Below are positions 1 through 44,464 of a DNA stretch of 44,464 nt, in pieces. Origin of the DNA: a virus. The translations under genes were made by a program, and so were the position numbers. The DNA lies in the UHGV virus genome UHGV-0192852; one strand, given 5' to 3'. The stretch's first letter is position 1, and the number at the start of each line of letters is the position of its first letter. The notes under the pieces are model-generated. The model made no database searches. It saw only the letters and a program-made list of their open reading frames with translations, and was not told the origin of the DNA.

Positions 1-111
1 ATACGCCAGGTTGCGTGAGTCCATCATGATTGATTTAGCTTCGGTCGCGATTTCGTGGTCGCGCAGTATGTTAGCCAGAATCTGGTTTTTAATGTCTTTT
101 GTCAGTCTCAT
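1..111 (-). CDS. hypothetical protein, N-terminal segment; the gene continues across the circular junction into 43794..44464
   Basis: ATG at 111..109 (MRLTKDIKNQ...) with AGGAC RBS upstream; frame is continuous with minus ORF 43794..44429 once the 17-bp terminal duplicate is collapsed. Confidence 0.6.
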   Translation of the reverse strand, partial: MRLTKDIKNQILANILRDHEIATEAKSIMMDSRNLAY

Positions 112-259
112 TTATGTGTCCTCGTGGTTGGTGTGCAACCAATATAATGCAACCAACATCCGCAATGCAAGCGAATTTTGCGATTATTTTTATCGCTGAT
201 AATATTAAGGCGTGAAGTCAAGCGGGTGGCCCGCTTTGCCACAATCCCAGGGGGATAGC
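112..259. promoter_or_regulatory. divergent promoter/operator region between the 254-aa minus gene and the scaffold gene
   Basis: TGCAACCAA motifs at 134..142 and 148..156; minus-strand reading gives TTGCAT-N18-TATATT (170..141) followed by GGTTGCACACCAAC and AGGAC RBS. Confidence 0.5.
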
Positions 260-1058: not shown

Positions 1059-2159
1059 ATGTCTTTAACAGTGTTCCAGCGTAAACTCGTTACCGCGGTT
1101 ACGCAAATGATCCCCGACAACCTGAACGTTTTCAACGCTGCCGCCAATGGCGCTGTTGTTCTCGGTACTGGTGAAGTGCTGAAGGATGTTATTGAAAAAA
1201 TGTCCGTAGGCTTGATCGCCAACCTCGTTACCGACCGTAACGCCTACGCCCCTGTCGGCACTCCGGCAACCGCGAAAGTGCTGGCGCGTATGCTGACCAA
1301 CTCGGTTAACCTTTCCGCAAAAGTGGGTCCGGTAGCAATCACTAAGGCTATGATGGCTAAGATCGAAACCAACGTTAACAGCGTTGCGGCTGAGATTGCG
1401 GCACAGGCTACTCAAGCGATTATGCTGCACTACCTGAAGGCGGGCATCGGCGCAAGTAAAGCGGCGATCGAGAGCAACGCAGCGGCAAAATACACCCAAC
1501 CGGCGCGCGTTGACGGCGTTGGCGGTCGTACCTTCCCGACCCTGGCAGACTTCCCGCTGGCGGCTTCTAAGTTCGGCGATCAGGCGTCTTTGATTAAGTC
1601 CTGGTTTATGGACGGCGTTACTTGGGCAAACTTCATTGCCTACCAGGCGCTACCGTCTGCCGAGCAGGTATTCGCGATCGGCGATCTGCAGGTAATGGGT
1701 GATGGCCTGGGCCGTCGTTTCATTATCTCCGATGCCGCTGCCGATGCTATGGGTACGGGTAACATGCTGGGTCTGGTGCCTGGCGCTGTTGCGGTTACCA
1801 CCAACGGCCTTGATATGCTGGCGCAGGAGAAAGGCGGTAACGAGAACATCGAACGTTGGTGGCAGGGCGAGTTCGACTTCAACGTGGCTGTTAAAGGCTA
1901 CCGTCTGAAGGCGTCCGCTCGTACCCCGATCGAAGGTGTGCGCTCGTTCAAACTGAGCGATATCACCACCTCCGCGAACTGGGAACTGGACCAGGGCCAG
2001 GTAGACAACGCACCGGCAACCGTTCAGGACGTTGGCGCTGTGGGCGATGGTGATACTAAAGGCCGTCGTAAGACACAGGCTGCGCAGGAAGTGCCGACCC
2101 GTCACATCAAGGAAACCGCTGGCGTACTGGTTACGCTGACGGCGACTACCGCATCTTAA
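1059..2159 (+). CDS. major capsid protein
   Basis: 366-aa ORF following scaffold in head module, Ala/Gly/Val-rich composition typical of capsid proteins, followed by strong terminator. Confidence 0.7.
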   Translation: MSLTVFQRKLVTAVTQMIPDNLNVFNAAANGAVVLGTGEVLKDVIEKMSVGLIANLVTDRNAYAPVGTPATAKVLARMLTNSVNLSAKVGPVAITKAMMAKIETNVNSVAAEIAAQATQAIMLHYLKAGIGASKAAIESNAAAKYTQPARVDGVGGRTFPTLADFPLAASKFGDQASLIKSWFMDGVTWANFIAYQALPSAEQVFAIGDLQVMGDGLGRRFIISDAAADAMGTGNMLGLVPGAVAVTTNGLDMLAQEKGGNENIERWWQGEFDFNVAVKGYRLKASARTPIEGVRSFKLSDITTSANWELDQGQVDNAPATVQDVGAVGDGDTKGRRKTQAAQEVPTRHIKETAGVLVTLTATTAS

Positions 2160-2177
2160 CGGGCGCACATCCCAAAT

Positions 2178-2202
2178 GGGCGGGCTTATGCCCGCCTTTT
2201 TT
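2178..2202 (+). terminator. rho-independent terminator after capsid gene
   Basis: GGGCGGGC-TTAT-GCCCGCC hairpin followed by TTTTTT. Confidence 0.7.
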
Positions 2203-2217
2203 ATAGGAGTGAATGAA

Positions 2218-2718
2218 ATGTATGGCGACCCGCAAACATTTGTCGATTATGCCGCGGCGCGAGGCGTTGAAGTCACGCTGAGCGATGCAACTCGACACCT
2301 TACCGTAGTTAATGACTTCCTTAACGGCATCAACTGGATCGGAGAACCCGCAGACCAGACCGGAATCGACGCATGGCCCCGCATAAATTACCCATCGGAC
2401 GGTAAGCCGGTGCGAGACACGCTCACTGAAGTTGTGGCAGTAGTGCCTGCAGGGCAGATCGTAGATTTTGCATCAATCCCCATTGCCGTCGAGCAAGCCG
2501 TTTACAGGTTGGCGATGTTGGTGGCGGACGAGGTCGATATTTCCCCTGTTGGCAGTGGTAAGGAGACTATCCGCGAAACTGTTGGCCCGATCACGATGGA
2601 ATATGACCCTGCGACGATTGGTAGCGGTGTCTCGTTCCCGTGGTGGGATGGCTTGCTGGGCCACTGGATTGACTCCGACGGCAACGCAGCGGGTAATTTT
2701 GACGTATTCCGGGGGTGA
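2218..2718 (+). CDS. putative head-tail connector/adaptor protein
   Basis: AGGAG RBS 8 nt upstream of ATG 2218 (in frame within track ORF 2176..2718); position between capsid and tail genes. Confidence 0.4.
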   Translation: MYGDPQTFVDYAAARGVEVTLSDATRHLTVVNDFLNGINWIGEPADQTGIDAWPRINYPSDGKPVRDTLTEVVAVVPAGQIVDFASIPIAVEQAVYRLAMLVADEVDISPVGSGKETIRETVGPITMEYDPATIGSGVSFPWWDGLLGHWIDSDGNAAGNFDVFRG

Positions 2719-2719
2719 T

Positions 2720-2836
2720 ATGAATCCTGCATTACTGGCGGCTATTATCGCCGCAAATACTAAACGCCAACCAGAACCAGAACCGGAGCCAGCACCAGAA
2801 CCACCGGTACAGGAGGATGATAATGGCGGGCTTTAA
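2720..2836 (+). CDS. small Pro/Glu-rich hypothetical protein (38 aa)
   Basis: ATG 2720 directly after previous stop; MNPALLAAIIAANTKRQPEPEPEPAPEPPVQEDDNGGL; below track size cutoff, uncertain. Confidence 0.25.
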   Translation: MNPALLAAIIAANTKRQPEPEPEPAPEPPVQEDDNGGL

Positions 2837-3176
2837 TTACGCTGGATTAAAGCGGAAAGTGAATCCGCTGATTAAAAAATTCGGCATGACCGTTACGGTT
2901 ACGCGTCCGGGGTCGGTTGACCGCGTAGACGGCGACGAAGTGGTAATCCCGCCAACGTCGTTCGACGTCATAGGTCTTCGCGAGGAGTACAAGCCTAGCG
3001 AGATCGACGGAACGCGTATCGTTGCCGGTGATGTGAAGTTTTTATGTCGGGCGGTTGAGCAATTGCGGGTGGGCGACCTTGTTAACCTGAACGGCACTGA
3101 CTACCGGGTCGTTAACCCTAACCCACTGCAACCGGCGGGGACGACCATGCTGTTTCAACTACAGCTAAGGGGCTAA
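2817..3176 (+). CDS. putative head closure/head-tail joining protein
   Basis: 119-aa ORF in neck module between connector and tail genes. Confidence 0.4.
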   Translation: MIMAGFNYAGLKRKVNPLIKKFGMTVTVTRPGSVDRVDGDEVVIPPTSFDVIGLREEYKPSEIDGTRIVAGDVKFLCRAVEQLRVGDLVNLNGTDYRVVNPNPLQPAGTTMLFQLQLRG

Positions 3177-3177
3177 C

Positions 3178-3771
3178 GTGGCTGAAGTCTACTCATTCGC
3201 CGCCACTATTGCTACGTGGGTGGATAAGACGAAGGAGAACAACGATAAGGCGGTGCGGGCGTACGGGATGCAAATACTCGGACGCCTTATTGAGATCTCC
3301 CCGGTGGGCGACCCTCGCCGGTGGAAAATTAACAGGGCTTACGCGCTGGCCCGCCAGCACGCGAACAAGGTGAACGCCGCGCAGCGTCGCAAGAATGGTG
3401 GCAAACTGAAGCGCGGGCAGAAAAAGCACGCCAGCGTGCTGGTATCATTCAAGACTAAAAACGGCAACGTCACGTTCCGCCAGCGTGGCTGGGCTGCGAA
3501 GAATTACACCGGCGGACGCTTCCGGGGAAACTGGCAGGTTACGTTCGACCGACCGGCGGTTGGCGCTATCGACCGCGTGGACAAGGCCGGAACGGCAACA
3601 TTAGCCGCTGGGCGTGAAGTGCTGGCGCATTACGATTCCGGTGAATACGGGTCGATCTGGTTTACTAACAACGTGCCATACGCGCAGCGACTTGAGTATG
3701 GCTGGAGTAAACAAGCGCCCGCGGGGATTGTTCGCGTCGTAGCGGCAGAAATTAATTCGAAGGTGAAATAA
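3178..3771 (+). CDS. putative neck/tail completion protein
   Basis: 197-aa ORF, synteny; start abuts previous stop. Confidence 0.4.
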   Translation: MAEVYSFAATIATWVDKTKENNDKAVRAYGMQILGRLIEISPVGDPRRWKINRAYALARQHANKVNAAQRRKNGGKLKRGQKKHASVLVSFKTKNGNVTFRQRGWAAKNYTGGRFRGNWQVTFDRPAVGAIDRVDKAGTATLAAGREVLAHYDSGEYGSIWFTNNVPYAQRLEYGWSKQAPAGIVRVVAAEINSKVK

Positions 3772-4193
3772 TGAGCAATACCGCAATCCGCAAAGCGCTT
3801 AACAGCGTGGTTGAAGAGTTATCGGCAATCCTGAGCACAAGCCAGCGTCCGATTAGGGTTAACTGGGAGAACGTGAGCGGCGACCACGCAAACGGCAGCG
3901 GGATCTACCTGGAGCCGTACCTGCTACCAGCCCCTACCCAGTTTGTGGGCCTCCAGCAGAAGGGTCGGATCTATGCTGGCGTATATCAGGTTGCCGTGGT
4001 GTTTCCCGCAGGAACTGGAACACAGTACGCGAGCGAACTGGCGGACGCCATCGCTACGTCTGATAAGTGGCTGGCGGTGAAGATTTCCGGTGCGTCATTC
4101 CAGCTTCAGGATGCGCCCTATACCAGTTCAGTGGTTGAGGATGTTGATCGTGCCCGCATTGTGGTTACAGTCCCCTACACCTGTTGCGCCTGA
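3771..4193 (+). CDS. putative tail terminator protein
   Basis: 140-aa ORF immediately upstream of major tail protein gene; synteny. Confidence 0.4.
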   Translation: MSNTAIRKALNSVVEELSAILSTSQRPIRVNWENVSGDHANGSGIYLEPYLLPAPTQFVGLQQKGRIYAGVYQVAVVFPAGTGTQYASELADAIATSDKWLAVKISGASFQLQDAPYTSSVVEDVDRARIVVTVPYTCCA

Positions 4194-5412: not shown

Positions 5413-5726
5413 TTGAGGCGGCGCGACGCTTTTATGGCCCGCCGCCACCCTCCGAAGATTTAGCCGCAAGTTTATGGGGTGCGGCCCCCGAAGATGTTTG
5501 TCCGCCTGTTGCGCTATGGCCCGACAACGCGAAGGTAGTCGCCGTCTTCACGGATTGCTCCACGCAATGGCGCACCGGATTCGGCGGCGCATACGGCATC
5601 GACTACGGCGTACTGGAATGGCTATTTAAGATGCATGGCATCGAAAACGCACAACGTGCGTTTAAAGATATCAAGCTAATGGAACGCGTTGCGCTGGATG
5701 AAATGGCGCGGCAGAACCCCGCATAA
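5050..5726 (+). CDS. tail assembly chaperone G-T fusion made by programmed -1 ribosomal frameshift
   Basis: slippery heptamer A_AAA_AAC at 5403..5409 just before the G stop; the -1 frame is open with no ATG for 105 codons (LIEAARRFYGPPPPSEDL...DEMARQNPA) to TAA at 5724..5726. Confidence 0.6.
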
Positions 5727-5730
5727 CGAA

Positions 5731-5990
5731 GCGGGACAGGCGGGACGTCCCGTTTTGTCCCGCACCTCTAAAAACTGCATATTTACCCACCAACATTGCA
5801 TAAATTAAAAACGGGACAGGGGTGCTGTCCCGATCTGTCCCACCCCCAAATTGTGAATATCTATTCTGTTTTCGTGCATAAAACAAACGGGACAAAAAGC
5901 GGGACAGACAAGGGGCGGGACAAAGCGGGACAGCACCCTGTCCCTGCCAGTGCTGCCGCGGGGTTTAGCCGATCGGGACAGCGGGACAGC
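5731..5990. repeat. array of GCGGGACA(G) octamers in both orientations (copy A)
   Basis: about 14 copies of CGGGACA / TGTCCCG incl. palindromes CGGGACGTCCCG and GGGACAGGGGTGCTGTCCC; 5887..5945 nearly identical to 33738..33795. Confidence 0.8.
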
Positions 5991-5994
5991 ACCC

Positions 5995-6042
5995 CAGTCT
6001 TTCAGACTAGACGGGGGTCAATGGCCCCCTCGTCTGAGACTG
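5995..6042 (+). other. conserved 48-nt imperfect palindrome/hairpin (copy A)
   Basis: CAGTCTTTCAGACTAGACGGGGGTCAATGGCCCCCTCGTCTGAGACTG; outer CAGTCT/AGACTG, AGACG/CGTCT and GGGGG/CCCCC pairings; near-identical copy at 33846..33894. Confidence 0.75.
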
Positions 6043-6110: not shown

Positions 6111-8753
6111 ATGGCAGATCAGGCAGCGGGCATCACGCTAAAGGCGGACGTCGCGCAAATTAAAACGGCTAATACTGTGCTGGACACATTTGCGCAGAAA
6201 TCCGAGAACACAGAACAGAAAGTAAAAAAATTAAACGACACCCTCGGCAAGTCGAAAAAGGTTACTGGCGACGCCGCGGGCGGAATGGAAAAGTTAGCGA
6301 CTGAATCGCAGCGCGCCGCCGACGGCATGACGAAACAGGAGCGACTCGCCAGCCGATTAGGCATGTCGACCAAAAACCTGGGATTCGCATCGCGGAACGC
6401 CGCATTCCAGTTACAGGATATCGCGGTTACGCTAGAGATGGGTATGCCGGTGCACCGCGTCATGCTTCAGCAGCTACCACAGCTAACCGGCGCATTTGGC
6501 GGACTGGGTAACACGCTGCGATATGTTGCAGGCTTCCTCGGCCCAGTAGGGATCGGACTTGCTGCCGTAACGGCGACGTTAGGCGTGGGCGTGGCAATTA
6601 CGTCACGGGCAGAGAACCAAGTGGCGGCGCTTAATAAGACGCTGGCGCTGTCCGGTAATATCTCCGGCCTCACAGCTAACCAGATCCTTGTGCTGTCCGA
6701 GAACGCCGAGCGCATGGGCGGGTCATTTCGCAAGACGCGTGACACAATCCAGGCGCTGGCGGCGGCGGGTGTGAAAGCGGGTGGTGACTTCGGCGCATTG
6801 GCTAAGGTAGTTAATGACTTTGCGAAGGTGTCCAGCCAGCCGATCGAGGATGTGGTAGCGGCGGTGGCGAAGCTGTCAACCGACCCCGTTGGCGGACTGC
6901 GTGCGCTGGCGGATAAGTATCACGTCGTAAACGAAGCGCAGATCCAGCAGGTACAGTCGCTCGTTGATGCGGGTCGTGAGACAGACGCAGTTGCGTTGGC
7001 TAACAAAACAGCCGCGGCGTCGTTCACCAGCATGACCAATGAAATCAAGTCCAACATGGGTACGCTTGAGCGGTCGATGAACGTCGTCACATCGGCAGCC
7101 AAATCGATGTGGGACGCTATCCTGGATGTGGGTCGCGCGCAGTCCTCCAATGAATCCGAGATGAAAGCGCGCGAATCACTGCAGCGGCTGACCACGGCTT
7201 ACTATGCCGAGATGAAAGCGGTAAACGCTGCCGGTGGGGTAATGACTGAAGCGCAGAAAGCACGTATTAACATGCTTTACAGCGAACTGGTCGCCCAGGA
7301 AAAAGTGGTGGCGTCGCTCACCCTGCGTAACCGTGCTGAGCGAGACAACGCCCGCGCCGCAGACGAATCCGCAAAGGCGAACGAGGAGGCCAACCGCACT
7401 GCCCGTGACCGCGCCGCGTTCGAGAAGGAATACGCCACCAACGCTAAGAAGCGCGCCGACGAGATCGCCCGCCTCAATTTGCTGAATAAGCGCGGCGTTA
7501 TTGATGAGAAAGAACTAGCCGAGGCGGTTAAGCAGGTCAACGAGCGCTACAAAGACCCCGCCCCGAAGAAGGCCGCGGCTGTTCGTGTGGATGCCGGTAT
7601 GAAAATGCTGGAAGTCGCACGGAGCGAACTGGCCCAGCTTCGAGAATCAGGCAAGCAGATCGAAGCCAACGCGTCTACGCAGACCCGCACGCAACGCGCT
7701 CAAGCGGCCTTAAATAAGCTGATCGCCGACAATGAGCAGCTAATTGCCGCGAGCAAAGAAAGAGCACTAACGGCAGCAGAAAAGCAGCAGATGGTCGAAT
7801 TCGGACGCGTGAAGGAAGTGCGCGAGCAGATCGTCGAAGAAGCCAAATTGCTGGACGCGAAAGAGAAGCAGGTTAAGGCGCACGCGCAGATCGATGCCTT
7901 CGTTAAGAACCAGAACGCCGAACTAAAAGCCACCGCCGCGGGGTATGCGCTTTCCACTCGCGAAGCGGCAAACCTGCGTGAAGAATTGCAGCTAATTGAC
8001 CGCCTGAAGCGGGTTGGCGCTAACGATACCGATATAGACAAGGCGGTGTCTAAGCTGCGCGAAGTGCAGGAAGCACAGACCGGTGCTAACGCCTCGCTAT
8101 GGGATGGCTTCAGCCGCGGGCTTAAGGATAGTGTGGATGATATGGGTAACGGATATACGCAGATGACGACGCTCACAAAATTCACGTTCAGCGCTATGCA
8201 AGACACGATGAACGAGTTTTTCGAGACGGGCAAGCTGAACGCAAAGGATATGGTTAAGTCCATCCTTAGCGAATTAATCAAGCTGGCTACCTCACAGGCT
8301 TTCAAGTCGATCGTTAGCGCTTTTGGTGGCGACGGCGGCAAAAACGGATTGTTCGGCGCTATCTTCTCAGGCCTCACCAAGAATGCGGACGGCGGAGCGT
8401 ACGCAGGAGGCAATCTCGCGGCCTATTCGGGGAAAGTGGTAAGCCAGCCTACCTTTTTCAGTTATGGCGTCCAGGCGTTCGCTAAGGGCGCAGGATTGAT
8501 GGGCGAGGCTGGCCCCGAGGCCATCATGCCACTGAAGCGCGGGCCGGACGGGAAACTGGGCGTTGCCGCGTCTGGCGCAGGCGGGGGTATGGTCGTGACG
8601 ACTAACGTTTACACGGGTACCGGTAAAACGGATACCAGTGTCAGCGGGCCGGACACCCGTACCGCGCAGGCGTTCGGCAAGCAGATCACCGAGGCGGTGA
8701 AGTCCGAGATCGTGAAGGCAACGAAACCGGGTGGTGTACTTTATAAACGATGA
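6111..8753 (+). CDS. tail tape measure protein
   Basis: 880-aa ORF, coiled-coil-rich with Gly-rich C-terminal part, located after G/G-T chaperones and before the M-L-K-I-J module. Confidence 0.85.
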   Translation: MADQAAGITLKADVAQIKTANTVLDTFAQKSENTEQKVKKLNDTLGKSKKVTGDAAGGMEKLATESQRAADGMTKQERLASRLGMSTKNLGFASRNAAFQLQDIAVTLEMGMPVHRVMLQQLPQLTGAFGGLGNTLRYVAGFLGPVGIGLAAVTATLGVGVAITSRAENQVAALNKTLALSGNISGLTANQILVLSENAERMGGSFRKTRDTIQALAAAGVKAGGDFGALAKVVNDFAKVSSQPIEDVVAAVAKLSTDPVGGLRALADKYHVVNEAQIQQVQSLVDAGRETDAVALANKTAAASFTSMTNEIKSNMGTLERSMNVVTSAAKSMWDAILDVGRAQSSNESEMKARESLQRLTTAYYAEMKAVNAAGGVMTEAQKARINMLYSELVAQEKVVASLTLRNRAERDNARAADESAKANEEANRTARDRAAFEKEYATNAKKRADEIARLNLLNKRGVIDEKELAEAVKQVNERYKDPAPKKAAAVRVDAGMKMLEVARSELAQLRESGKQIEANASTQTRTQRAQAALNKLIADNEQLIAASKERALTAAEKQQMVEFGRVKEVREQIVEEAKLLDAKEKQVKAHAQIDAFVKNQNAELKATAAGYALSTREAANLREELQLIDRLKRVGANDTDIDKAVSKLREVQEAQTGANASLWDGFSRGLKDSVDDMGNGYTQMTTLTKFTFSAMQDTMNEFFETGKLNAKDMVKSILSELIKLATSQAFKSIVSAFGGDGGKNGLFGAIFSGLTKNADGGAYAGGNLAAYSGKVVSQPTFFSYGVQAFAKGAGLMGEAGPEAIMPLKRGPDGKLGVAASGAGGGMVVTTNVYTGTGKTDTSVSGPDTRTAQAFGKQITEAVKSEIVKATKPGGVLYKR

Positions 8754-10180: not shown

Positions 10181-10921
10181 ATGTTAACGAAGAAGGTTAA
10201 ACGCGATATCGCCGCACACGTTGCGGCATGTCTGCCGGAAGAAGCCTGCGGCCTGGTTGTCATGGTGGGTCGCAAGCAAGTATTTGTCCCGTGCATGAAC
10301 GTATTCGAAGACCCGACCGGCGTGCGCTCGCGCAAAGACGCGTTTACCATTAGGGATACGGCCTGGATGGATGCCGAGGATATGGGCGACGTCGTGCGCG
10401 TAGTCCACTCGCACCCAGGGCAGCGCGAGCTAACCCCGTCATTGGGCGACGTTAACGGATGCAACGGCAGCGGCGTCGTCTGGACCATCACTAACGAATA
10501 TGGCGACTTTATCGAGATAGACCCGGAAGACCCGCCGCTGGTAGGCCGCCGATTTGTTCTCGGAATTACGGATTGTTACGGCCTCGTCATGGACTGGCAC
10601 AAAAAGCAGGGAGTAAATTTGCCAGACTTCCGCGTGCCGTATAACTGGTGGGAGACAGGCGAAAATCTGTATATGGATAACTGGTACGGCGCTGGATTCA
10701 GGGAATGCGAGGAGAATACGCCGGGGGCGATGGTCATCATGCAGATTAGCGCGCCAGTGCCTAACCACGCCGGGATATTCCTTCCGGGCAACCAACTCCT
10801 ACACCATATCTACGGCAGTCTGTCGAGCGTGATACCCTTCCGGTCAGGATTTTTCCGGGACAATGTGGTTAAATGGGTACGTCATAAAGACCTACCGGGG
10901 AATATAACAGAATGGCAATGA
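10181..10921 (+). CDS. tail assembly protein K (MPN/JAMM + NlpC/P60 domains)
   Basis: EACG...HSHP JAMM-like motif N-terminally and DCYGLV...H NlpC/P60-like Cys/His C-terminally; lambda gpK architecture. Confidence 0.85.
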   Translation: MLTKKVKRDIAAHVAACLPEEACGLVVMVGRKQVFVPCMNVFEDPTGVRSRKDAFTIRDTAWMDAEDMGDVVRVVHSHPGQRELTPSLGDVNGCNGSGVVWTITNEYGDFIEIDPEDPPLVGRRFVLGITDCYGLVMDWHKKQGVNLPDFRVPYNWWETGENLYMDNWYGAGFRECEENTPGAMVIMQISAPVPNHAGIFLPGNQLLHHIYGSLSSVIPFRSGFFRDNVVKWVRHKDLPGNITEWQ

Positions 10922-19898: not shown

Positions 19899-19952
19899 GA
19901 TGTTTTCCTTTTTAGTGGGAGGCAATACCGCCTCCCGACGAGTTAAATATAG

Positions 19953-19974
19953 TGCAACCAACCTATTGGTTGCA
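19953..19974. promoter_or_regulatory. perfect 22-bp palindromic operator-like site
   Basis: TGCAACCAA-CCTA-TTGGTTGCA; on minus strand followed by CTATATT (-10-like) upstream of gene 19305..19898. Confidence 0.6.
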
Positions 19975-20433
19975 AGTGAATTTTGCAACGTTTATCGCGT
20001 AAATTTTCGGGACCAAATCTCCGCACGCCCGACGAATTGCCGCGATGTTCTTCTCGCAATCTTCAATGATGACCAGTTCCGACACGTCCGCATAGCAGAC
20101 CATTTTGAACACGGCGCACGCCTTAAACTCTGGCGGCGGGGTATCGTCCAGCATGTGGCGCATAAACAACCGGCCTGTCGGGAATACTTCCAGTTGTTCG
20201 GCGGTGGTGTCCCAACATTCTCGCTGCCGGTTGGTCAGATACGCGATCTCGAAGCCTTGCTCTTTATACATGCGCAACAACGGCAGCATATCCATGTTCA
20301 GTTCTTCGCGGACGTGCGCTTTGTGCCACTTCGCCCAAAAGGTGGATTTAGTTTTTATCCCAGGCACCAGGTCGGCACGGGCATCGCTTGAACCGTTAAT
20401 AACGCCATCCAAATCGCAAATCAGTAATTTCAT
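19963..20433 (-). CDS. HAD-superfamily phosphatase (putative nucleotidase / polynucleotide 3'-phosphatase-like)
   Basis: N-terminal LICDLDGVI matches HAD motif I (DxDG). Confidence 0.55.
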   Translation of the reverse strand: MKLLICDLDGVINGSSDARADLVPGIKTKSTFWAKWHKAHVREELNMDMLPLLRMYKEQGFEIAYLTNRQRECWDTTAEQLEVFPTGRLFMRHMLDDTPPPEFKACAVFKMVCYADVSELVIIEDCEKNIAAIRRACGDLVPKIYAINVAKFTCNQ

Positions 20434-20654
20434 TTCAATTCCTCAATCAAATTTGCACGAACAGTACGGGCGGAAAACGTGTCACACACAAGATGACAGC
20501 GGGCAGTCATTACAAGCCAGCCAGTAAGGTCCATGCCCAGGATGTGTTCAGGCCGTGACACGCGACGCACTTTGTTCTCCCTCGGGTTGATTTGGTAGCG
20601 TTTAACAATTTCGTCCACGACGCGCATACTGCGATCAACGATTAAGATATTCAC
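20430..20654 (-). CDS. hypothetical protein
   Basis: 74-aa ORF, GTG start with AAGGAGAA RBS; overlaps 3' end of Dam gene. Confidence 0.45.
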   Translation of the reverse strand: MNILIVDRSMRVVDEIVKRYQINPRENKVRRVSRPEHILGMDLTGWLVMTARCHLVCDTFSARTVRANLIEELK

Positions 20655-21120
20655 GTAGTTCTCCTTCGCTCATTATTTCAATTTGTGCGCTGCCGGTGGG
20701 TGGCGCCTCGTCAAAGATTATCAATTGCTGGCACTTGTTATTGCTCGGCCCGACTTCACCGGTCACAGCATGGATGAATCGTATCCGCCAGTCCAGAAGA
20801 ATTATCAGGTTTGCAGTCTTCCGGGCCAGCTTCGCCCACTTAGTCGACGTGTCCTGATTCAGTAGCATGACAGTCTGGCGACCGTGCGCTGCGCATTCCA
20901 CCCACGGCAGCGGATCGGAGTATGGCGGATTGCACCACTTCCACCCCTTCAACTCTGACCAGTCCACATCAAGCGCGCTGCGATCTGCCGTGAAGTAACG
21001 CGGTAGCAGATGATTGGCATCGCTCGCCGCCATGTCATAACGGAATCGGTACTTCCGGCGCAGCGGTTTAAATAAAGCTGGTGGCGTGCGCCAGCTATCC
21101 TTTTGTTCATTCTCAGTCAT
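20635..21120 (-). CDS. dam: DNA N6-adenine methyltransferase (phage Dam family)
   Basis: WRTPP...F...DMAASDANH...WCNPPY motifs typical of phage Dam MTases; ATG 21120 overlaps upstream stop (ATGA). Confidence 0.75.
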   Translation of the reverse strand: MTENEQKDSWRTPPALFKPLRRKYRFRYDMAASDANHLLPRYFTADRSALDVDWSELKGWKWCNPPYSDPLPWVECAAHGRQTVMLLNQDTSTKWAKLARKTANLIILLDWRIRFIHAVTGEVGPSNNKCQQLIIFDEAPPTGSAQIEIMSEGELREYLNR

Positions 21121-21413
21121 ACGGACAACACGGGCGGAAATCGCACGTACTCCTCGGCGCGCTTGCAATGTTCACGTAGGCCTTCTGCTGTGATGCGGTT
21201 TAACGCAACGCTGGTTGTGTATCCTGTGCGCTGCATAATCCCCATCAATTCGAAAAGTAGTTCGAAGCGCTCCTCTAACTCCTTGCGTACCTTCTTCTCG
21301 CCTTCGTAGCTCGCAAGGTGGGCGTCTGCCAGCGCGTTAGCGCGTTCGGCCTGTTCGCGGGCTTCGAGGCATTGCGCGGCCCAGTAATTTTTCTCTTCTT
21401 GTAAGATTTTCAT
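21117..21413 (-). CDS. hypothetical protein
   Basis: 98-aa ORF with GGAGACAA RBS downstream of promoter 21461..21489. Confidence 0.5.
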   Translation of the reverse strand: MKILQEEKNYWAAQCLEAREQAERANALADAHLASYEGEKKVRKELEERFELLFELMGIMQRTGYTTSVALNRITAEGLREHCKRAEEYVRFPPVLSV

Positions 21414-21460: not shown

Positions 21461-21494
21461 AATATAATGCAACCAATATGGTTATGCAACCAAT
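21461..21494 (-). promoter_or_regulatory. sigma70-like promoter with two TTGGTTGCAT motifs
   Basis: minus strand TTGGTTGCAT-AACCATA-TTGGTTGCAT-TATATTG, i.e. TTGCAT-N17-TATATT; 17-mer CAATATAATGCAACCAA shared with 140..156. Confidence 0.55.
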
Positions 21495-30189: not shown

Positions 30190-30592
30190 TTAATCTTCCA
30201 GTTCGAAATAAGTTTCGACGATTTCTTTAAGATCTTTGTGGAAGTCTTCGACGTCGTCATCTTCCAGCTTGGCGATTGATTTGATCTCGAACGATTCCAG
30301 CAGGTCGTCGAATTCGTCGTTCGCGTCATCATCATCACCGCCTGCAATAATAGCGGCATACTGCTTGATTTCGTCGCGCATTTCTGCCAGCGGATCAGCT
30401 TCTTTCTTACCTTTGCCTTTCGCTTTCTTAGTCTTCGCCGGAGCTTCTTCTTCGACTACTTCTTTTTTGGCCTTAGACGGCTTCTTGTCTTCCTGCTTAC
30501 CCACGGCAGCGCCAACGGTTTCATAATGCTTTGCAATGGTTTCCAGTGCTACTACGCCGCGAGTGATCAGGTTTACGATTTGTTCAAACATG
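30190..30592 (-). CDS. hypothetical Lys-rich/acidic protein
   Basis: ATG 30592 (MFEQIVNL...) with GGAGAT RBS; first gene after the leftward early promoter; acidic C-terminus. Confidence 0.5.
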
Positions 30593-30787
30593 GTATATCT
30601 CCGATTGGTTAAGTTTAGGTGTCGGCAGTTAACTTCGTCGGTGGCCTTAACATATTGCCCGGTTGCGCGTTCTCCCGTTCGGGTAGTGGACCGGGTTATA
30701 TAATCACGGTTGGGAATCCTGACACTTCGATCCGGCCCCTGCGTTGCCCCTCTCCAGTTTGCGTCCTGCATCCTGTCGACGGGGTGA

Positions 30788-33894: not shown

Positions 33895-34054
33895 CATAAA
33901 ATCCGGGGATTGCAAAATACACGGCAGCATGTTGCGGATTGCGGTCGTCGACGAACCCGGCAACCAATGCGAGTTGCAGAATGGAGAGTGAAAAATGCAG
34001 TTTGCAGTTACAGCAGATAGCGATCAACTTTTTCATGCGCGTGATTAATATTGG

Positions 34055-34097
34055 TTGCATTCGTGCCAGCACCCTGCTAGATTGGTTGCACACCAAC
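34055..34097 (+). promoter_or_regulatory. sigma70-like promoter with conserved leader element
   Basis: TTGCAT-N17-TAGATT followed by GGTTGCACACCAAC and AGGAC RBS; same architecture as the minus-strand promoter at 170..141. Confidence 0.55.
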
Positions 34098-34111: not shown

Positions 34112-34402
34112 ATGAAAAAACTAATCTGGAATTACACAATGGCCCTGGCGAAGCCGGTCGAAGTGAAACACACAAACGGCAGCGCACCAGAGGCGTTCAT
34201 GACCGCTCCGGCCTGGCATGCGATCATTAACGCGACCGCGGGCATGGAAGACCCCAAGCCGTTGCGCGCGGCTATCAGGGCTTACGCGCTGGCATTTGCC
34301 CGCGAGCGCCTGGCATATCGCTTCGGTGTTGGCGATAAGGCAGTGACAAACATCGCCCGGATTAAAGCCCAGCGTGAGCTATTCGCCCAGCTTGAGAAAT
34401 AA
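34112..34402 (+). CDS. hypothetical protein
   Basis: ATG 34112 (MKKLIWNY...) with GAGGA RBS, in frame within track ORF 34055..34402. Confidence 0.5.
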   Translation: MKKLIWNYTMALAKPVEVKHTNGSAPEAFMTAPAWHAIINATAGMEDPKPLRAAIRAYALAFARERLAYRFGVGDKAVTNIARIKAQRELFAQLEK

Positions 34403-35909: not shown

Positions 35910-36200
35910 ATGGATAAGCTAAACGAGTGGTTATTCGCCCTTGCGTGTCTTGCTGGTGGCTTCGTAGGCGCACGCATTCATGGCGAGGCAACGAAAGGGC
36001 CGTTGAACTTCGTTTTATATGTCGTAGTTGGCTTCCTGTGCGCCGTTTTTGGCGCTCCAGCGATTGCCGAGTGGTCTGGTTTGTCTGGCGAGCGCACTGT
36101 CGCCGGTTTGGGCTTCGTAACTGCCATCTTCTGGATGCCAATAGCGGACCGGATCAGGGAGACTATTGAGTCGTTCCGACTTCCGGGGGGCGCAAAATGA
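35910..36200 (+). CDS. putative holin/antiholin
   Basis: 96-aa protein with about three hydrophobic segments, two genes upstream of endolysin. Confidence 0.5.
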   Translation: MDKLNEWLFALACLAGGFVGARIHGEATKGPLNFVLYVVVGFLCAVFGAPAIAEWSGLSGERTVAGLGFVTAIFWMPIADRIRETIESFRLPGGAK

Positions 36201-36442
36201 TTATCTCCGTCCTGTTGTTTGTTATCATCGGGGCTTCGTCCCTGTTTAACGTGTATGCGCCGTCCGTCCAGGATGGCATTTTCGGTCGGGTGTTATATCT
36301 ACTAACGGCGATGGTCTGTGTTATCGGACTGTTGCAAACAGGAGACGTATCGAACACCACCTGGACCGCGTTAATCTGGCTGTTTGCATTGCGCACCCTG
36401 CGTAATGCTGTTTTGAATGGGGTAAAACATGCGATTCAGTGA
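36197..36442 (+). CDS. putative holin
   Basis: 81-aa protein with 2-3 hydrophobic segments, directly upstream of and overlapping endolysin start. Confidence 0.5.
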   Translation: MIISVLLFVIIGASSLFNVYAPSVQDGIFGRVLYLLTAMVCVIGLLQTGDVSNTTWTALIWLFALRTLRNAVLNGVKHAIQ

Positions 36443-36920
36443 CAACGGTCTAAGATTTACGGCAGCATGGGAGCAATTCAGCCCAGTGCCGTATTTCGCG
36501 ACTAAGAAAGAGCAGGCCCGCGGCCTGTACACCTGGGGCTATGGGCACACCGGCACAAATCCGCCACGAAGCATTACCCGCGCGGAAGCGCTGGAGCTAC
36601 TCAAGCGAGATGTGGCATATGCAGAAAACTGGGTGAACAAGTACGCACACCATAGCATCAACCAGGCGCAATTCGACGCGCTGGTGGACCTGGTTATCAA
36701 CGCCGGTCCTGGTCCGATCATGCCGGACGACATCGCCGGAGACTTCGACGATGCGATCCGCCTGGGTGACTGGGTAAAGGTCCGCGCTACGCTGCCACAA
36801 TTCCGCAAGCAAGGCGGGGTAGTGCTCAAGGGGCTTGTCCGTCGTGCGATCGGCAGACAGGCGCTATTCGATGGTAAGCAGTGGGACGTTGCCGAGAAAA
36901 TCGGGCGAAACGCCGCATAA
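36429..36920 (+). CDS. endolysin (GH24 phage lysozyme, P22 gp19-like)
   Basis: SDNGLRFTAAWE...GYGH...QFDALVDLVINAG...GLVRRA matches conserved lysozyme blocks. Confidence 0.85.
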   Translation: MRFSDNGLRFTAAWEQFSPVPYFATKKEQARGLYTWGYGHTGTNPPRSITRAEALELLKRDVAYAENWVNKYAHHSINQAQFDALVDLVINAGPGPIMPDDIAGDFDDAIRLGDWVKVRATLPQFRKQGGVVLKGLVRRAIGRQALFDGKQWDVAEKIGRNAA

Positions 36921-37140: not shown

Positions 37141-37179
37141 TTGACTTGCAACCAATTATCAGACCATACTGCGACCAAT
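37141..37179 (+). promoter_or_regulatory. promoter/operator region with TGCAACCAAT and TGCGACCAAT motifs
   Basis: TTGACT at 37141..37146, motifs at 37147..37156 and 37170..37179, upstream of AGAGGA RBS and small ORFs. Confidence 0.45.
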
Positions 37180-42258: not shown

Positions 42259-43345
42259 TCAATATATGGCGGATCGAATGATTCGCCGTCACATCTTCAC
42301 CCAGCGCCTGAGTAATGACCAGGCGCGGAGGGTGTTGGCTATGTGGGAGAAGTTCCGGCCCACGTTACTGGGTAAGCTGACCGAGTTGCTTGATGGTAAA
42401 AAGTCCATGAGCAACAAGGCGCTTACCACCCTGTTAACGCAACTCGACAAGACCGTCAAAACGGAACTGCGCACCGAGTTTAAGGTGCTGGCTGAAAGCC
42501 TTCAGGAGTTCGCCGACACCGAGGCCGATTATCTCGCCGACACATTAACGGCAGCGATCCAGCCGGTGGTCGCCGTACCAGCGGTCGAGGTGGTTGGCGT
42601 AGTGACCGGTGCGCAGATCGCAGCGACGGCAATGAAAAACCCGTTCCAGGGTAATACGATGATGCAATGGCCGGACTCACTTTCTGAGTGGACCAGGACG
42701 CAGATCGGCAATCAGGTGCGCGCCGGATTCATCCAGGGCAAGCCAACGATGGAAATTATCGCGGACGTGAGGCGCGCGCTAGGCGGTCGTAGTGCGCAAG
42801 CCATCTCAAGCGTTGTTAAGTCCGCAGTCAACCACTATGCGGCGACCGCCCGCGAACTAATGGTAAAAGCAAATGACGATATTCTCGAAGGTCGCCAATG
42901 GTTATCTACATTGGACACGCATACTTCTCCCATGTGCCAGCTACGCGATCGCCTGTTTTATCCGGTTGATGTTACTCCCGATACGAAAGGGAAGCGAGGC
43001 GGAAAAGTGGTGGCGGGATCACAATATGGCGCTGGTCCGGGCAAGCTACATTATTGCTGCCGCTCGACGGAGACGTGGAAAGTCAAAGGTATGGAAGATT
43101 GGCCCAGTGGTAAGCGTCCGGCATTGAAGGCCGACGCAGGCAGATTGCTGAGTGAGCAGGTCGACGCGCAGACGGATTTCTTCTCATGGGTACAGCGCCA
43201 GCCGCGCCATATCCTGGAGGAATTATATGGAGTGCAACGCGCCGACCAGATTATGCGCGGCGTGAAAGTGCCGAAGATGTTTACCGATTCTGGCGAACTG
43301 ATGACTATCGCACAGCTTAAAAACCGGGGGTTATGGCGTGATTAA
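42242..43345 (+). CDS. head morphogenesis / minor capsid protein (SPP1 gp7 / Mu F-like)
   Basis: 367-aa ORF after portal; conserved-looking LSTLDTHTSPMCQ region. Confidence 0.75.
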   Translation: MAKTINQYMADRMIRRHIFTQRLSNDQARRVLAMWEKFRPTLLGKLTELLDGKKSMSNKALTTLLTQLDKTVKTELRTEFKVLAESLQEFADTEADYLADTLTAAIQPVVAVPAVEVVGVVTGAQIAATAMKNPFQGNTMMQWPDSLSEWTRTQIGNQVRAGFIQGKPTMEIIADVRRALGGRSAQAISSVVKSAVNHYAATARELMVKANDDILEGRQWLSTLDTHTSPMCQLRDRLFYPVDVTPDTKGKRGGKVVAGSQYGAGPGKLHYCCRSTETWKVKGMEDWPSGKRPALKADAGRLLSEQVDAQTDFFSWVQRQPRHILEELYGVQRADQIMRGVKVPKMFTDSGELMTIAQLKNRGLWRD

Positions 43346-43667
43346 ATATGCAGCTATTGGACTAGTTATCGGTCTGGCGGTAGGATTCTGGCTAGGTGAC
43401 TCCTATCGTGCTGGCGTAGTGGCAGAGGCGGCGCAAGAAGCGCAAGCCCAAGCCCAACGGCAGCAAACTAAAGTTGTCGAGCGCTCCGTGCAGGCCGAAC
43501 AAGCCCGCGACGTAGAATACCGGACTATCACGAAAGAGGTTGTTAAATATGTTACGCGCCCTAACCGCCCTGATTGTAGTTTTGATGCTGAGCGCGTGCG
43601 GATCAAGCAACGCGCCGTTGATGCCGCTAACGGAGTCGGCACTGCGACCGCCGTGCAAGTTCGATAA
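43338..43667 (+). CDS. i-spanin (Rz-like)
   Basis: GTG start; N-terminal TM segment (AAIGLVIGLAVGFWL) then Ala/Gln-rich coiled region; an overlapping +1-frame lipoprotein gene follows. Confidence 0.55.
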   Translation: MIKYAAIGLVIGLAVGFWLGDSYRAGVVAEAAQEAQAQAQRQQTKVVERSVQAEQARDVEYRTITKEVVKYVTRPNRPDCSFDAERVRIKQRAVDAANGVGTATAVQVR

Positions 43668-43779
43668 CCCGTCTGCGGACCCCGACGAAGATTTGATGAT
43701 TGACGTGAAAAATATGGAATGCGGGGCGAAGCTGAGGGCGCAGGTGTTGGAGTTGCAGCAGATAATTAAGGGGCCGTAA
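43549..43779 (+). CDS. o-spanin (Rz1-like outer-membrane lipoprotein)
   Basis: LIVVLMLSAC lipobox signal peptide, Pro-rich mature region; starts inside the i-spanin gene in another frame and extends beyond it (overlapped architecture); alternative ATG at 43540. Confidence 0.55.
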   Translation: MLRALTALIVVLMLSACGSSNAPLMPLTESALRPPCKFDNPSADPDEDLMIDVKNMECGAKLRAQVLELQQIIKGP

Positions 43780-43790
43780 TGGCCCCTTTT
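43770..43790 (+). terminator. terminator between convergent genes
   Basis: GGGGCC-GTAAT-GGCCCC hairpin followed by TTTT. Confidence 0.65.
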
Positions 43791-43793
43791 CCG

Positions 43794-44464
43794 TTAGCGA
43801 GGAATGCCGCAAATCTCGTTGAGTGTTTTCACATCCAGCGCCACCGCCGTGGATTTTGGCTTGTCCGGGTAAGGGATGAATTGCTCAACTTCAGGCCATG
43901 CCTTGATCAGCTTCTTATCGGTATTGTGCATATCCAGCACGCCGGTCACAGTTAGCTTGAATGCGTCATACTTCGCACGCAACTCGCGGCGGGCCTTGTC
44001 GTTACGGTCCAGGCGCTTGCAGAAATCATGGTCCGCCGGATAGTCTATACGACCGCGTGGCTTATATATCGGCAGCGCTTTCCCGTCATCGTCTAATTCG
44101 CACACTGACGCTAACATAATTTCCTCATACCCTGGCACAATATCGCCGAGATCGGGAGACAGCTTATTCATGTATTTATACTCCCAGTATCCGCGATGTA
44201 CTCGGTATTGGAGTCCGTCGCCGCTCAATGACAAGGTGCGAACGTTACCGCCTGCGTTGATTTCGAAAGTGGCATCGTAAACGCCGCCAATACCTTTTGG
44301 GCGGTCGGTGTTATAACTATACGTCGCCTTGTTGGTGTATACGCAGACGCCGTACATCTGCGACGGGTCATCGCTGATTGCTTCAATGTGCGCACGTAGC
44401 TCGGCGAACGTATGAATGCCCACCGGCATACAGTGTAACGTAATGTCATACGCCAGGTTGCGTG
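43794..44464 (-). CDS. hypothetical protein, C-terminal segment of the 254-aa gene spanning the circular junction
   Basis: minus ORF open to the window end; joins in frame with 111..1 after removing the 17-bp duplicate. Confidence 0.6.
   Translation of the reverse strand, partial: RNLAYDITLHCMPVGIHTFAELRAHIEAISDDPSQMYGVCVYTNKATYSYNTDRPKGIGGVYDATFEINAGGNVRTLSLSGDGLQYRVHRGYWEYKYMNKLSPDLGDIVPGYEEIMLASVCELDDDGKALPIYKPRGRIDYPADHDFCKRLDRNDKARRELRAKYDAFKLTVTGVLDMHNTDKKLIKAWPEVEQFIPYPDKPKSTAVALDVKTLNEICGIPR
44448..44464 (+). repeat. terminal duplicate of positions 1..17 (circular assembly overlap)
   Basis: ATACGCCAGGTTGCGTG present at both window ends. Confidence 0.9.

Follow-up and report, generated by a model that had tools for sequence, protein, structure and literature searches.

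What is the function of a single gene that is read leftwards within the rightward structural block of a phage genome, and does it belong to that block? The gene lies across both ends of the window, i.e., of the whole analysed stretch of 44,464 nucleotides (UHGV-0192852). The window starts and ends with the same 17 bases (1..17 and 44448..44464), and thus it represents a phage genome of 44447 bp that is circularly closed and was cut within a gene. Joining 43794..44447 and 1..111 on the minus strand of the circle yielded an open reading frame of 765 nt, which translates into 254 amino acids followed by a stop codon. The 3' part (43794..44464, minus strand, of which 44448..44464 duplicates 1..17) ends with the stop codon TAA at 43796..43794. 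The 5' part (1..111, minus strand) opens with an ATG at 111..109 and encodes the N-terminus MRLTKDIKNQ. An in-frame TAA is located immediately upstream of the ATG, and a putative Shine-Dalgarno sequence, GAGGA, can be read at 123..119 on the minus strand, 7 nt upstream of the start codon, which is also kept in relatives.

The join across the assembly overlap is correct, because residues 1-254 were matched as a single contiguous piece in 146 GenBank phage records, with identities of 83-94%. The start codon is also correct, because the members of the protein family described below open with M-R-L-T. The median pairwise dN/dS value was 0.128 (116 orthologue pairs), indicating purifying selection. 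An earlier note on this DNA had described a lone minus-strand gene of 254 codons across the assembly junction, and join, start and selection agree that this gene is real. It had also been described as the sole minus-strand gene between the packaging/head genes and the scaffold gene, and the ORF map as well as the annotated relative Pandora71 bore this out for the region from the head-morphogenesis and spanin genes to the scaffold gene. The order of the plus-strand genes is small and large terminase, portal, head-morphogenesis protein and spanin pair on one side, and scaffold and major capsid on the other. The GC content of the gene is slightly lower than that of the genome (51.1% versus 54.5%).

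The earlier note had recognised no family in the encoded protein, and in this respect it was wrong. The protein matched the Pfam family PF18757 (Nmad5) over its full length, with 190 bits at a gathering cut-off of 27 and an E-value of 7.1e-56 (residues 1-253 on profile positions 1-206). The full name of this family is "Nucleotide modification associated domain 5". A further match was obtained with PHROG 1965, a family of unknown function (E=1.1e-59). All signature residues of Nmad5 are present in the window protein, i.e., M-R-L-T, G104, T213-x-x-K-L217-x-x-x-W221-P-E, P229, and L246-N247-x-x-x-G-[LI]-P. The window is a Dhillonvirus genome, and its head-morphogenesis protein shares 99.7% identity with the counterpart in SECphi4, the closest GenBank relative. 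Nmad5 itself has 85-94% identity to the product of the gene located at this position in Dhillonviruses. The reverse-strand gene is almost certainly the Dhillonvirus orthologue of nmad5 (PF18757, PHROG 1965), and one GenBank relative already labels the orthologue as Nmad5 domain-containing protein. The finding is thus already known: the gene has a name and has been published, and its Pfam family is curated.

The distribution of nmad5 was analysed in 157 Dhillonvirus records from GenBank, defined by a head-morphogenesis protein of at least 80% identity. The gene was found at the same position in about 150 of them (about 95%, at an identity of at least 60%), and in a few more it is split by the ends of the record. 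In the phage Teewinot it was detectable for codons 1-38 only. Because about 150 of the 157 records carry it at the same place, nmad5 is, by this count, a near-core gene of the genus and not a sporadic moron. In comparison with SECphi4 the identity on the amino acid level was 93.7% for Nmad5 versus 99.7% for the neighbouring head protein, and thus nmad5 evolves faster. The slots that flank it are variable; in some relatives an extra gene of phrog_24635 is found upstream of nmad5, or a DNA-metabolism gene of phrog_3007 downstream of it. The earlier note had called the gene moron-like and had proposed to check its presence or absence in related phages. The cassette shares one feature with a moron in the sense of Hendrix and Juhala, namely that it is an autonomous reverse unit within a conserved module, with a promoter and a terminator of its own, as far as in silico prediction goes. 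Sporadic presence and a deviant composition, in contrast, are not shared, as it is near-universal in the genus and its GC content is close to that of the genome.

How would this gene be expressed? A sigma-70-like promoter is predicted on the minus strand at 170..141, with the -35 element TTGCAT (170..165), a spacer of 18 nt, and the -10 element TATATT (146..141). The window contains four sites with the pattern TTGCAW-N16-18-TAKAWT versus 0.2 expected, and none of 100 shuffled sequences reached four sites. The three further sites (19946..19975 and 21461..21489 on the minus strand, 34055..34083 on the plus strand) all precede non-structural genes, i.e., the region of the Dam methyltransferase and the phosphatase, and several small ORFs in a row. 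Across the aligned relatives both hexamers are kept, while the spacer is variable. The phages SM_A8 and CHD5UKE2 contain an additional gene of 104 codons, and here the promoter element precedes this addition. What the element marks is thus the 5' end of the whole leftward unit, and not nmad5 itself. The 9-mer TTGGTTGCA is present twice around the -10 element (156..148 and 142..134), and it is enriched throughout the phage genome (26 occurrences versus 12 expected). The palindrome TTGGT-N5-ACCAA was considered as a candidate operator, but its three sites versus 1.1 expected are not significant.

At the other end, a hairpin that resembles a bidirectional intrinsic terminator is predicted at 43768..43788 on both strands, with the structure AAGGGGCC-GTAAT-GGCCCCTT and a GC-rich stem of 8 bp. 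It is located 5 nt beyond the nmad5 stop codon, and it shares bases with the o-spanin stop codon on the opposite strand. The RNA folding energies were -24.8 kcal/mol (z -3.7) for the minus strand and -21.2 kcal/mol (z -2.4) for the plus strand, with z calculated against shuffled sequence, and T-rich tracts follow the hairpin on either strand. Both genes, o-spanin and nmad5, could use this hairpin, each on its own strand. A generic sigma-70 consensus scan did not call the nmad5 promoter, and a generic terminator consensus scan missed the hairpin, we think because the extension of the stem swallowed the T-run. Both elements were retained as in silico predictions on the basis of comparative and folding evidence. 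They agree with the earlier note, which had proposed the promoter TTGCAT-N18-TATATT at 170..141 and an adjoining convergent terminator at 43770..43790.

A search of 1.84 billion proteins with P0001, a protein 93% identical to that of the window, revealed that the Nmad5 family is small and restricted to phages, with 94 representative clusters at E<=1e-3. All members found have a single domain and a length of about 170-300 amino acids (180-254 for the complete ones, the window protein having 254), and not a single fusion was observed. In an alignment of 70 divergent members, L217, W221 and N247 are invariant, and G104, P222, P229 and L246 are nearly so. Only four polar positions are conserved in at least 85% of the members, i.e., R2, T/S213, E/D223 and N247, and no nucleotide-binding, metal-binding or nucleophile motif was seen in the alignment. 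These four residues could still make up a small active site or a ligand pocket. Residue 216, which is of importance below, is a lysine in only 61% of the 70 members and Q, R or A in the others; it is conserved in all 16 orthologue sequences checked, including the window protein.

The structure prediction that the earlier note had asked for gave a confident AlphaFold2 model of P0001 (pLDDT 90.1, pTM 0.83). It consists of three N-terminal helices, a central beta region, which contains an insertion specific for Dhillonvirus, a long helix (178-209), short helices around W-P-E, and a C-terminal helix. DSSP placed residues 2 and 213 of the model in beta-bridges, and we infer that the conserved N-terminus probably packs against the T213/K216/W221 motif. 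The model matched other Nmad5 proteins in BFVD (E-values from 2e-28 to 1.5e-5), but it matched no solved fold and contained no recognisable catalytic fold. Profile searches of PDB sequences, PADLOC and NCBIfam returned nothing.

The genomic context of nmad5 in other phages was analysed with two alignments that were narrower than the set of 70 sequences. Across about 20 other phage groups, the gene is mostly found beside or inside early or replication-recombination modules, and it often stands at or near the start of its (early) operon. Its neighbours include PolA, a DUF2800 exonuclease, SSB, AAA_24, primases, helicases, and ParB-like proteins. Observed arrangements are nmad5 before a ParB-like protein and a helicase, before DUF7173, AAA_24, SSB and exonuclease, beside PolA and ThyX, or beside primases. 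In two contigs, L037 and L041, it forms part of the replication operon, and the exonuclease gene follows two to three genes downstream; the PolA of L037 is 66% identical to that of the window, and the DUF2800 exonuclease of L041 is 48% identical to its counterpart. In lambdoid and Stx phages the homologue directly follows N and precedes Bet, a classic slot for accessory genes. In a few contigs nmad5 is found just before lysis genes and not beside replication genes, and in one contig it adjoins a Tad2-like anti-Thoeris gene. Outside of the Dhillonvirus genomes it was never found in a head module, with the exception of one Dhillonvirus-like contig (L018). These contexts, and above all the operons of L037 and L041, suggest a link to replication and recombination. 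In Dhillonvirus, nmad5 seems to have been relocated to the head region, with a promoter of the non-structural class retained.

A special context is found in the YuA/M6-like Pseudomonas phages, where the homologue lies between the genes for aGPT-Pplase and dUMP hydroxymethylase, within a cluster for thymidine hypermodification. The Nmad domains were reportedly defined by Iyer et al. in 2013, and the name Nmad5 presumably derives from this neighbourhood. A Pfam scan of the early-region proteins of the window detected neither a hydroxymethylase nor a 5-hmdU kinase nor an aGPT-Pplase; among these proteins, a Dam methyltransferase was the sole match related to DNA modification. In the annotation of the relative Pandora71, two genes are listed as putative DNA methyltransferases, and enzymes for hypermodification are missing. 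In the window, the slot in which sister phages keep genes near nmad5 is occupied by a gene of 193 codons (30190..30771). Its product had no similarity to the 201-aa protein encoded in this slot in L041, and no Pfam match, including Nmad5.

Additional information comes from the genetics of Tmn, a membrane NTPase. Yamashita et al. (2025, Commun Biol) linked the nmad5 orthologues of the phages SM_S22 and SM_A8 to the escape from Tmn (PMC11846954). Independent mutants of two phages carried the exchange K216E in nmad5, the introduction of K216E alone led to Tmn resistance, and its reversion restored sensitivity (PMC11846954). The deletion mutant was viable and still sensitive to Tmn, and the wild-type gene could not be cloned and is apparently toxic (PMC11846954). 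Phages with wild-type nmad5 are Tmn-sensitive, and another gene, ORF35, is the anti-Tmn factor (PMC11846954). The authors regarded Nmad5 as a DNA modification enzyme and suggested that Tmn senses an Nmad5-dependent modification (PMC11846954). The exchange appears as K296E in SM_S22, as the start codon in the SM_S22 record is annotated 80 codons too far upstream; in the window, an extension of this type is excluded by the in-frame TAA. For phage T2 it was reported that RIIB, which is early and replisome-associated, activates Tmn by direct binding, that a single residue separates binding from activation, as seen from the behaviour of D219S, and that RIIB nonsense mutations lead to escape (2026 preprint, PMC13001434).

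Three possible connections to known triggers or escape genes were rejected. Homology of Nmad5 to RIIB of T4/T2 was not detected by hhalign (probability 0.2%). Ksap1, the Dhillonvirus trigger of KpAvs2, is not nmad5 but another gene of 74 codons between methyltransferase and phosphatase genes. Escape mutants of SECphi4 had hits in the genes for SSB and DNA polymerase, and not in nmad5.

Taken together, the explanation that we prefer, consisting of the identity as nmad5 and of a proposed expression and role, appears slightly better than an even bet as a whole. It proposes that nmad5 would be transcribed leftwards from its own host-type promoter, with the transcript being ended by the bidirectional hairpin. 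Because the promoter belongs to the class that precedes the non-structural genes of the phage, Nmad5 is probably an early or middle product of the infection, and not one that is made together with the surrounding head genes. It would then act as a dispensable binding or adaptor protein for the replication-recombination machinery of the phage, i.e., the family A polymerase, the Enc34-type SSB and the DUF2800 exonuclease. The N-terminus, the T-x-x-K-L-x-x-x-W-P-E helix and the C-terminal L-N-x-x-x-G-L-P motif may form the surface that binds the partners, and K216E, a charge reversal on this conserved surface, would alter the response of Tmn to the infection. We infer this mechanism from genomic context, and the part that Nmad5 is a non-enzymatic, replication-associated adaptor is put forward tentatively, with chances somewhat below even. 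Nmad5 is most likely not an enzyme, in view of the few conserved polar residues, the single-domain architecture of its members, the lack of partner enzymes in the window, and the restriction-sensitive genus.

The escape by missense mutation and not by deletion fits a neomorphic or dominant effect of K216E. By analogy with RIIB D219S, it may be speculated that the K216E protein is a Tmn binder that does not activate; as a dominant blocker of this kind, it would explain why the missense mutation leads to escape but the deletion does not. The far-reaching version of this idea would be that Nmad5 is no enzyme but a widespread early adaptor of the replisome or of recombination, with a fold lacking any solved relative, that it is read by Tmn like RIIB, that K216E is a dominant non-activating blocker, and that the name of the family is an artefact of guilt by association, stemming from a single phage group. 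We consider this combination of claims rather improbable.

The apparent toxicity of the cloned wild-type gene fits equally well to an effector with a host target, the action of which would not depend on phage replication, and the earlier note had indeed suggested a function in host takeover, exclusion or anti-defence. Such a function would be in line with the variable cassette that has a promoter and a terminator of its own, the post-N slot in lambdoid phages and the frequent position as first or early gene of an early operon, the Tad2-like anti-Thoeris neighbour in one contig, the creation of Tmn resistance by a single substitution, and the faster evolution of nmad5 than of its head neighbours. 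However, the wild-type allele gives no protection from Tmn, ORF35 being the anti-Tmn factor, and the protein has no match among the PADLOC models of known defence-system proteins. In addition, a near-core gene with a dN/dS of 0.13 is unlike the typical counter-defence genes with their fast turnover, and the replication/recombination context in other phages also argues against a host-directed role. Altogether, an effector of this kind is possible, but unlikely. From the earlier suggestion, the interplay with Tmn via K216E remains; anti-defence or exclusion by the wild-type protein finds no support, since wild-type phages are Tmn-sensitive and only the missense mutants escape.

The family name and the interpretation of Yamashita favour an enzyme that modifies DNA bases, or an obligatory subunit of such an enzyme, with Tmn sensing the modified DNA. 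YuA gp15 and its counterparts in M6 and SN1 are indeed encoded beside 5-hmdU kinase, aGPT-Pplase and dUMP hydroxymethylase, and a few polar residues (R2, T/S213, E/D223, N247) are conserved. The predicted structure, however, has no known enzyme fold, nucleotide-binding, metal-binding and nucleophile motifs are missing, and none of the partner enzymes of the pathway is encoded in the window or in most of the other phages with nmad5. Dhillonviruses are also reported to be sensitive to type I and type II restriction in comparison with deazaguanine-modified phages (PMC8594841). Moreover, the deletion of nmad5 leaves Tmn sensitivity unchanged, which is hard to square with Tmn reading a mark made by Nmad5. 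For these reasons we consider an enzymatic role quite improbable.

The deletion mutant also bears on the view that Nmad5 itself is the pattern directly recognised by Tmn, i.e., that it has the role of RIIB in T2. Independent escape mutants of two phages hit the same residue and reversion restored sensitivity, and in T2 the binding of RIIB activates Tmn, with one residue parting binding from activation (PMC13001434). Yet, Nmad5 cannot be the sole trigger of Tmn, because the phage without nmad5 remains sensitive, and it has no sequence relation to RIIB; a direct recognition of Nmad5 is thus very improbable. Finally, nmad5 is not a structural gene, and a function in head assembly is hardly credible, as only its position between head-morphogenesis and scaffold genes points to it, while it is encoded on the other strand, has a promoter that belongs to the non-structural class, is dispensable in the published orthologue, is detectable only for codons 1-38 in Teewinot, and has homologues in early/replication modules, and never in head modules except in L018.

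If the adaptor reading that we prefer is true, the Tmn escape allele would have to be reread as altered protein recognition instead of altered DNA modification, and phage engineers would have a clearer rationale for the use of the K216E allele. For genome annotation the value is ordinary, as the Pfam family, the gene name and mutational data from the same genus are all published. What is added is a caution and a suggestion. The label "DNA modification enzyme" is unsafe, as it goes back to the association with one gene neighbourhood, and fold, conservation and the other contexts argue against it. The suggestion is that Nmad5 belongs with the early replication-recombination functions.

Several known systems can be compared with the nmad5 of the window. 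T2 RIIB and Nmad5 are both early phage proteins, although in the case of Nmad5 the timing is deduced from the promoter, and in both cases exchanges of single residues are tied to Tmn escape. They differ in that homology is not detectable, and in that nonsense mutations of RIIB lead to escape, whereas the deletion of nmad5 does not. The homologue of lambdoid and Stx-converting phages, a protein of 207 amino acids encoded first after N in the pL operon, also belongs to PHROG 1965 (E=5e-83), and its gene is promoter-proximal in an early operon near recombination genes. In contrast to the window protein, with which it shares about 32% identity and a tblastn match over residues 156-253 only, it is found in temperate phages without a polymerase of their own, and its gene is co-oriented with the operon and does not form a reverse cassette. 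YuA gp15, which represents the YuA/M6/SN1-like phages, is likewise a single-domain protein of PHROG 1965, and its C-terminal part is about 40% identical to residues 173-253 of the window protein. It comprises 186 amino acids and lacks the central insertion of about 50 residues, and it is encoded in the thymidine hypermodification cluster beside PolA, whereas the window does not encode those enzymes. The window protein thus agrees with the family throughout in sequence and structure, but the neighbourhood that gave the family its name is absent. The last comparison concerns the nmad5 genes of SM_S22 and SM_A8, which show only allelic differences, apart from the 104-codon gene that SM_A8, unlike the window, has between promoter and nmad5. 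They encode proteins of 254 amino acids with 90-92% identity, have the same promoter element, are found in the same place and direction between the spanin/head-morphogenesis and scaffold genes, and share with the window K216 and the whole T-D-K-K-L-I-K-A-W-P-E motif.

The leftward cassette of nmad5 is a variable slot among the relatives of the window phage. In two of them, SM_A8 and CHD5UKE2, nmad5 is separated from the promoter by an additional gene of 104-109 aa (phrog_24635, unknown function; 2146..2460 and 2132..2461, respectively). In CHD5UKE2, a gene of 171 aa (phrog_3007, 3323..3838) is also present downstream of nmad5; it is RusA-like or processivity-factor-like and carries the annotation "possible moron". 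Also in a more distant relative, the Dhillonvirus-like contig L018, the genes that flank nmad5 are different ones (5633..5998 and 6784..7203). In Teewinot (NC_073053.1), a Dhillonvirus of 41.8 kb, nmad5 could be detected over its first 38 codons only (3001..3114). This looks like a natural deletion, and the loss agrees with the published viability of an engineered nmad5 deletion.

The records of two relatives probably contain annotation errors in this region. In SM_S22, nmad5 (CDS0006, 2261..3265) was annotated 80 codons too long and overlaps the scaffold gene, and this is the reason why the published Tmn-escape substitution is numbered K296E instead of K216E. In Pandora71, a 45-aa ORF, ECPH3_19 (10727..10864), was annotated on top of the nmad5 promoter.

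Homologues of nmad5 were also found in early modules of other phages. Two phages from metagenomes, contigs L037 and L041, have a replication module that resembles the one of Dhillonvirus, and in both of them nmad5 (1743..2411 and 7001..7669, respectively) lies inside the replication operon, upstream of an exonuclease gene. In L037 the order after nmad5 is DUF2800 exonuclease, Enc34-type SSB, PolA and SNF2 helicase, and PolA is 66% identical to the protein of the window. In L041 the exonuclease (48% identical to that of the window) is followed by the end of the contig. The position within the replication operon would imply that nmad5 was relocated in the Dhillonvirus lineage. In a further contig of 74.7 kb, L036, the gene directly upstream of nmad5 (6647..6928) matches the Pfam Tad2-like family, which is anti-Thoeris, and it was the only counter-defence neighbour of nmad5 among the contexts examined.

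The 9-mer TTGGTTGCA is enriched in the window, i.e., 26 sites with at most one mismatch were found versus 12 expected, and none of 100 shuffles reached 26. Pairs of it lie in intergenic regions, where they flank or overlap the -35 and -10 hexamers of the TTGCAW-N17/18-TATATT promoter class; the sites include 134..156, 19953..19974, 21468..21493, 34051..34090 and 37147..37178. The 9-mer could be an early-promoter signature or an operator for a phage regulator. In addition, ATTGGTTGCACACCAAC...GAGGAC is common to the leaders of nmad5 and of the gene starting near 34113. A possible rightward promoter of the scaffold/capsid operon was spotted by eye at 176..205 (+), consisting of TTGCGA at about 176..181 and the extended -10 element TGATAATAT at 197..205. 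It lies within the conserved AT-rich divergent region, about 55 nt before the scaffold ATG at 260, and an alignment revealed that the segment is kept in relatives. The consensus promoter scan of the window did not call this candidate.

The head module also contains a spanin pair (43338..43779, +), composed of an Rz-like i-spanin of 109 aa (43338..43667; phrog_2536, E=2e-36) and an o-spanin lipoprotein of 76 aa with the lipobox LSAC (43549..43779; phrog_5672, E=2e-26). The two genes overlap in different frames, and the loop of the terminator hairpin holds the o-spanin stop codon. The holin and endolysin genes are located about 7 kb away (about 35910..36920), and thus the lysis cassette is split.

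The window has an exact terminal duplication of 17 bp (1..17 = 44448..44464), an artefact that arose when a circular or circularly permuted genome was assembled; the true unit length is 44447 bp.

Lastly, a 74-aa ORF on the minus strand (about 20430..20654) is situated between the genes for a Dam methyltransferase (20635..21168) and a HAD phosphatase (19963..20433). The gene for Ksap1, the activator of KpAvs2 in Dhillonvirus, has been described at this position (PMC11564622).
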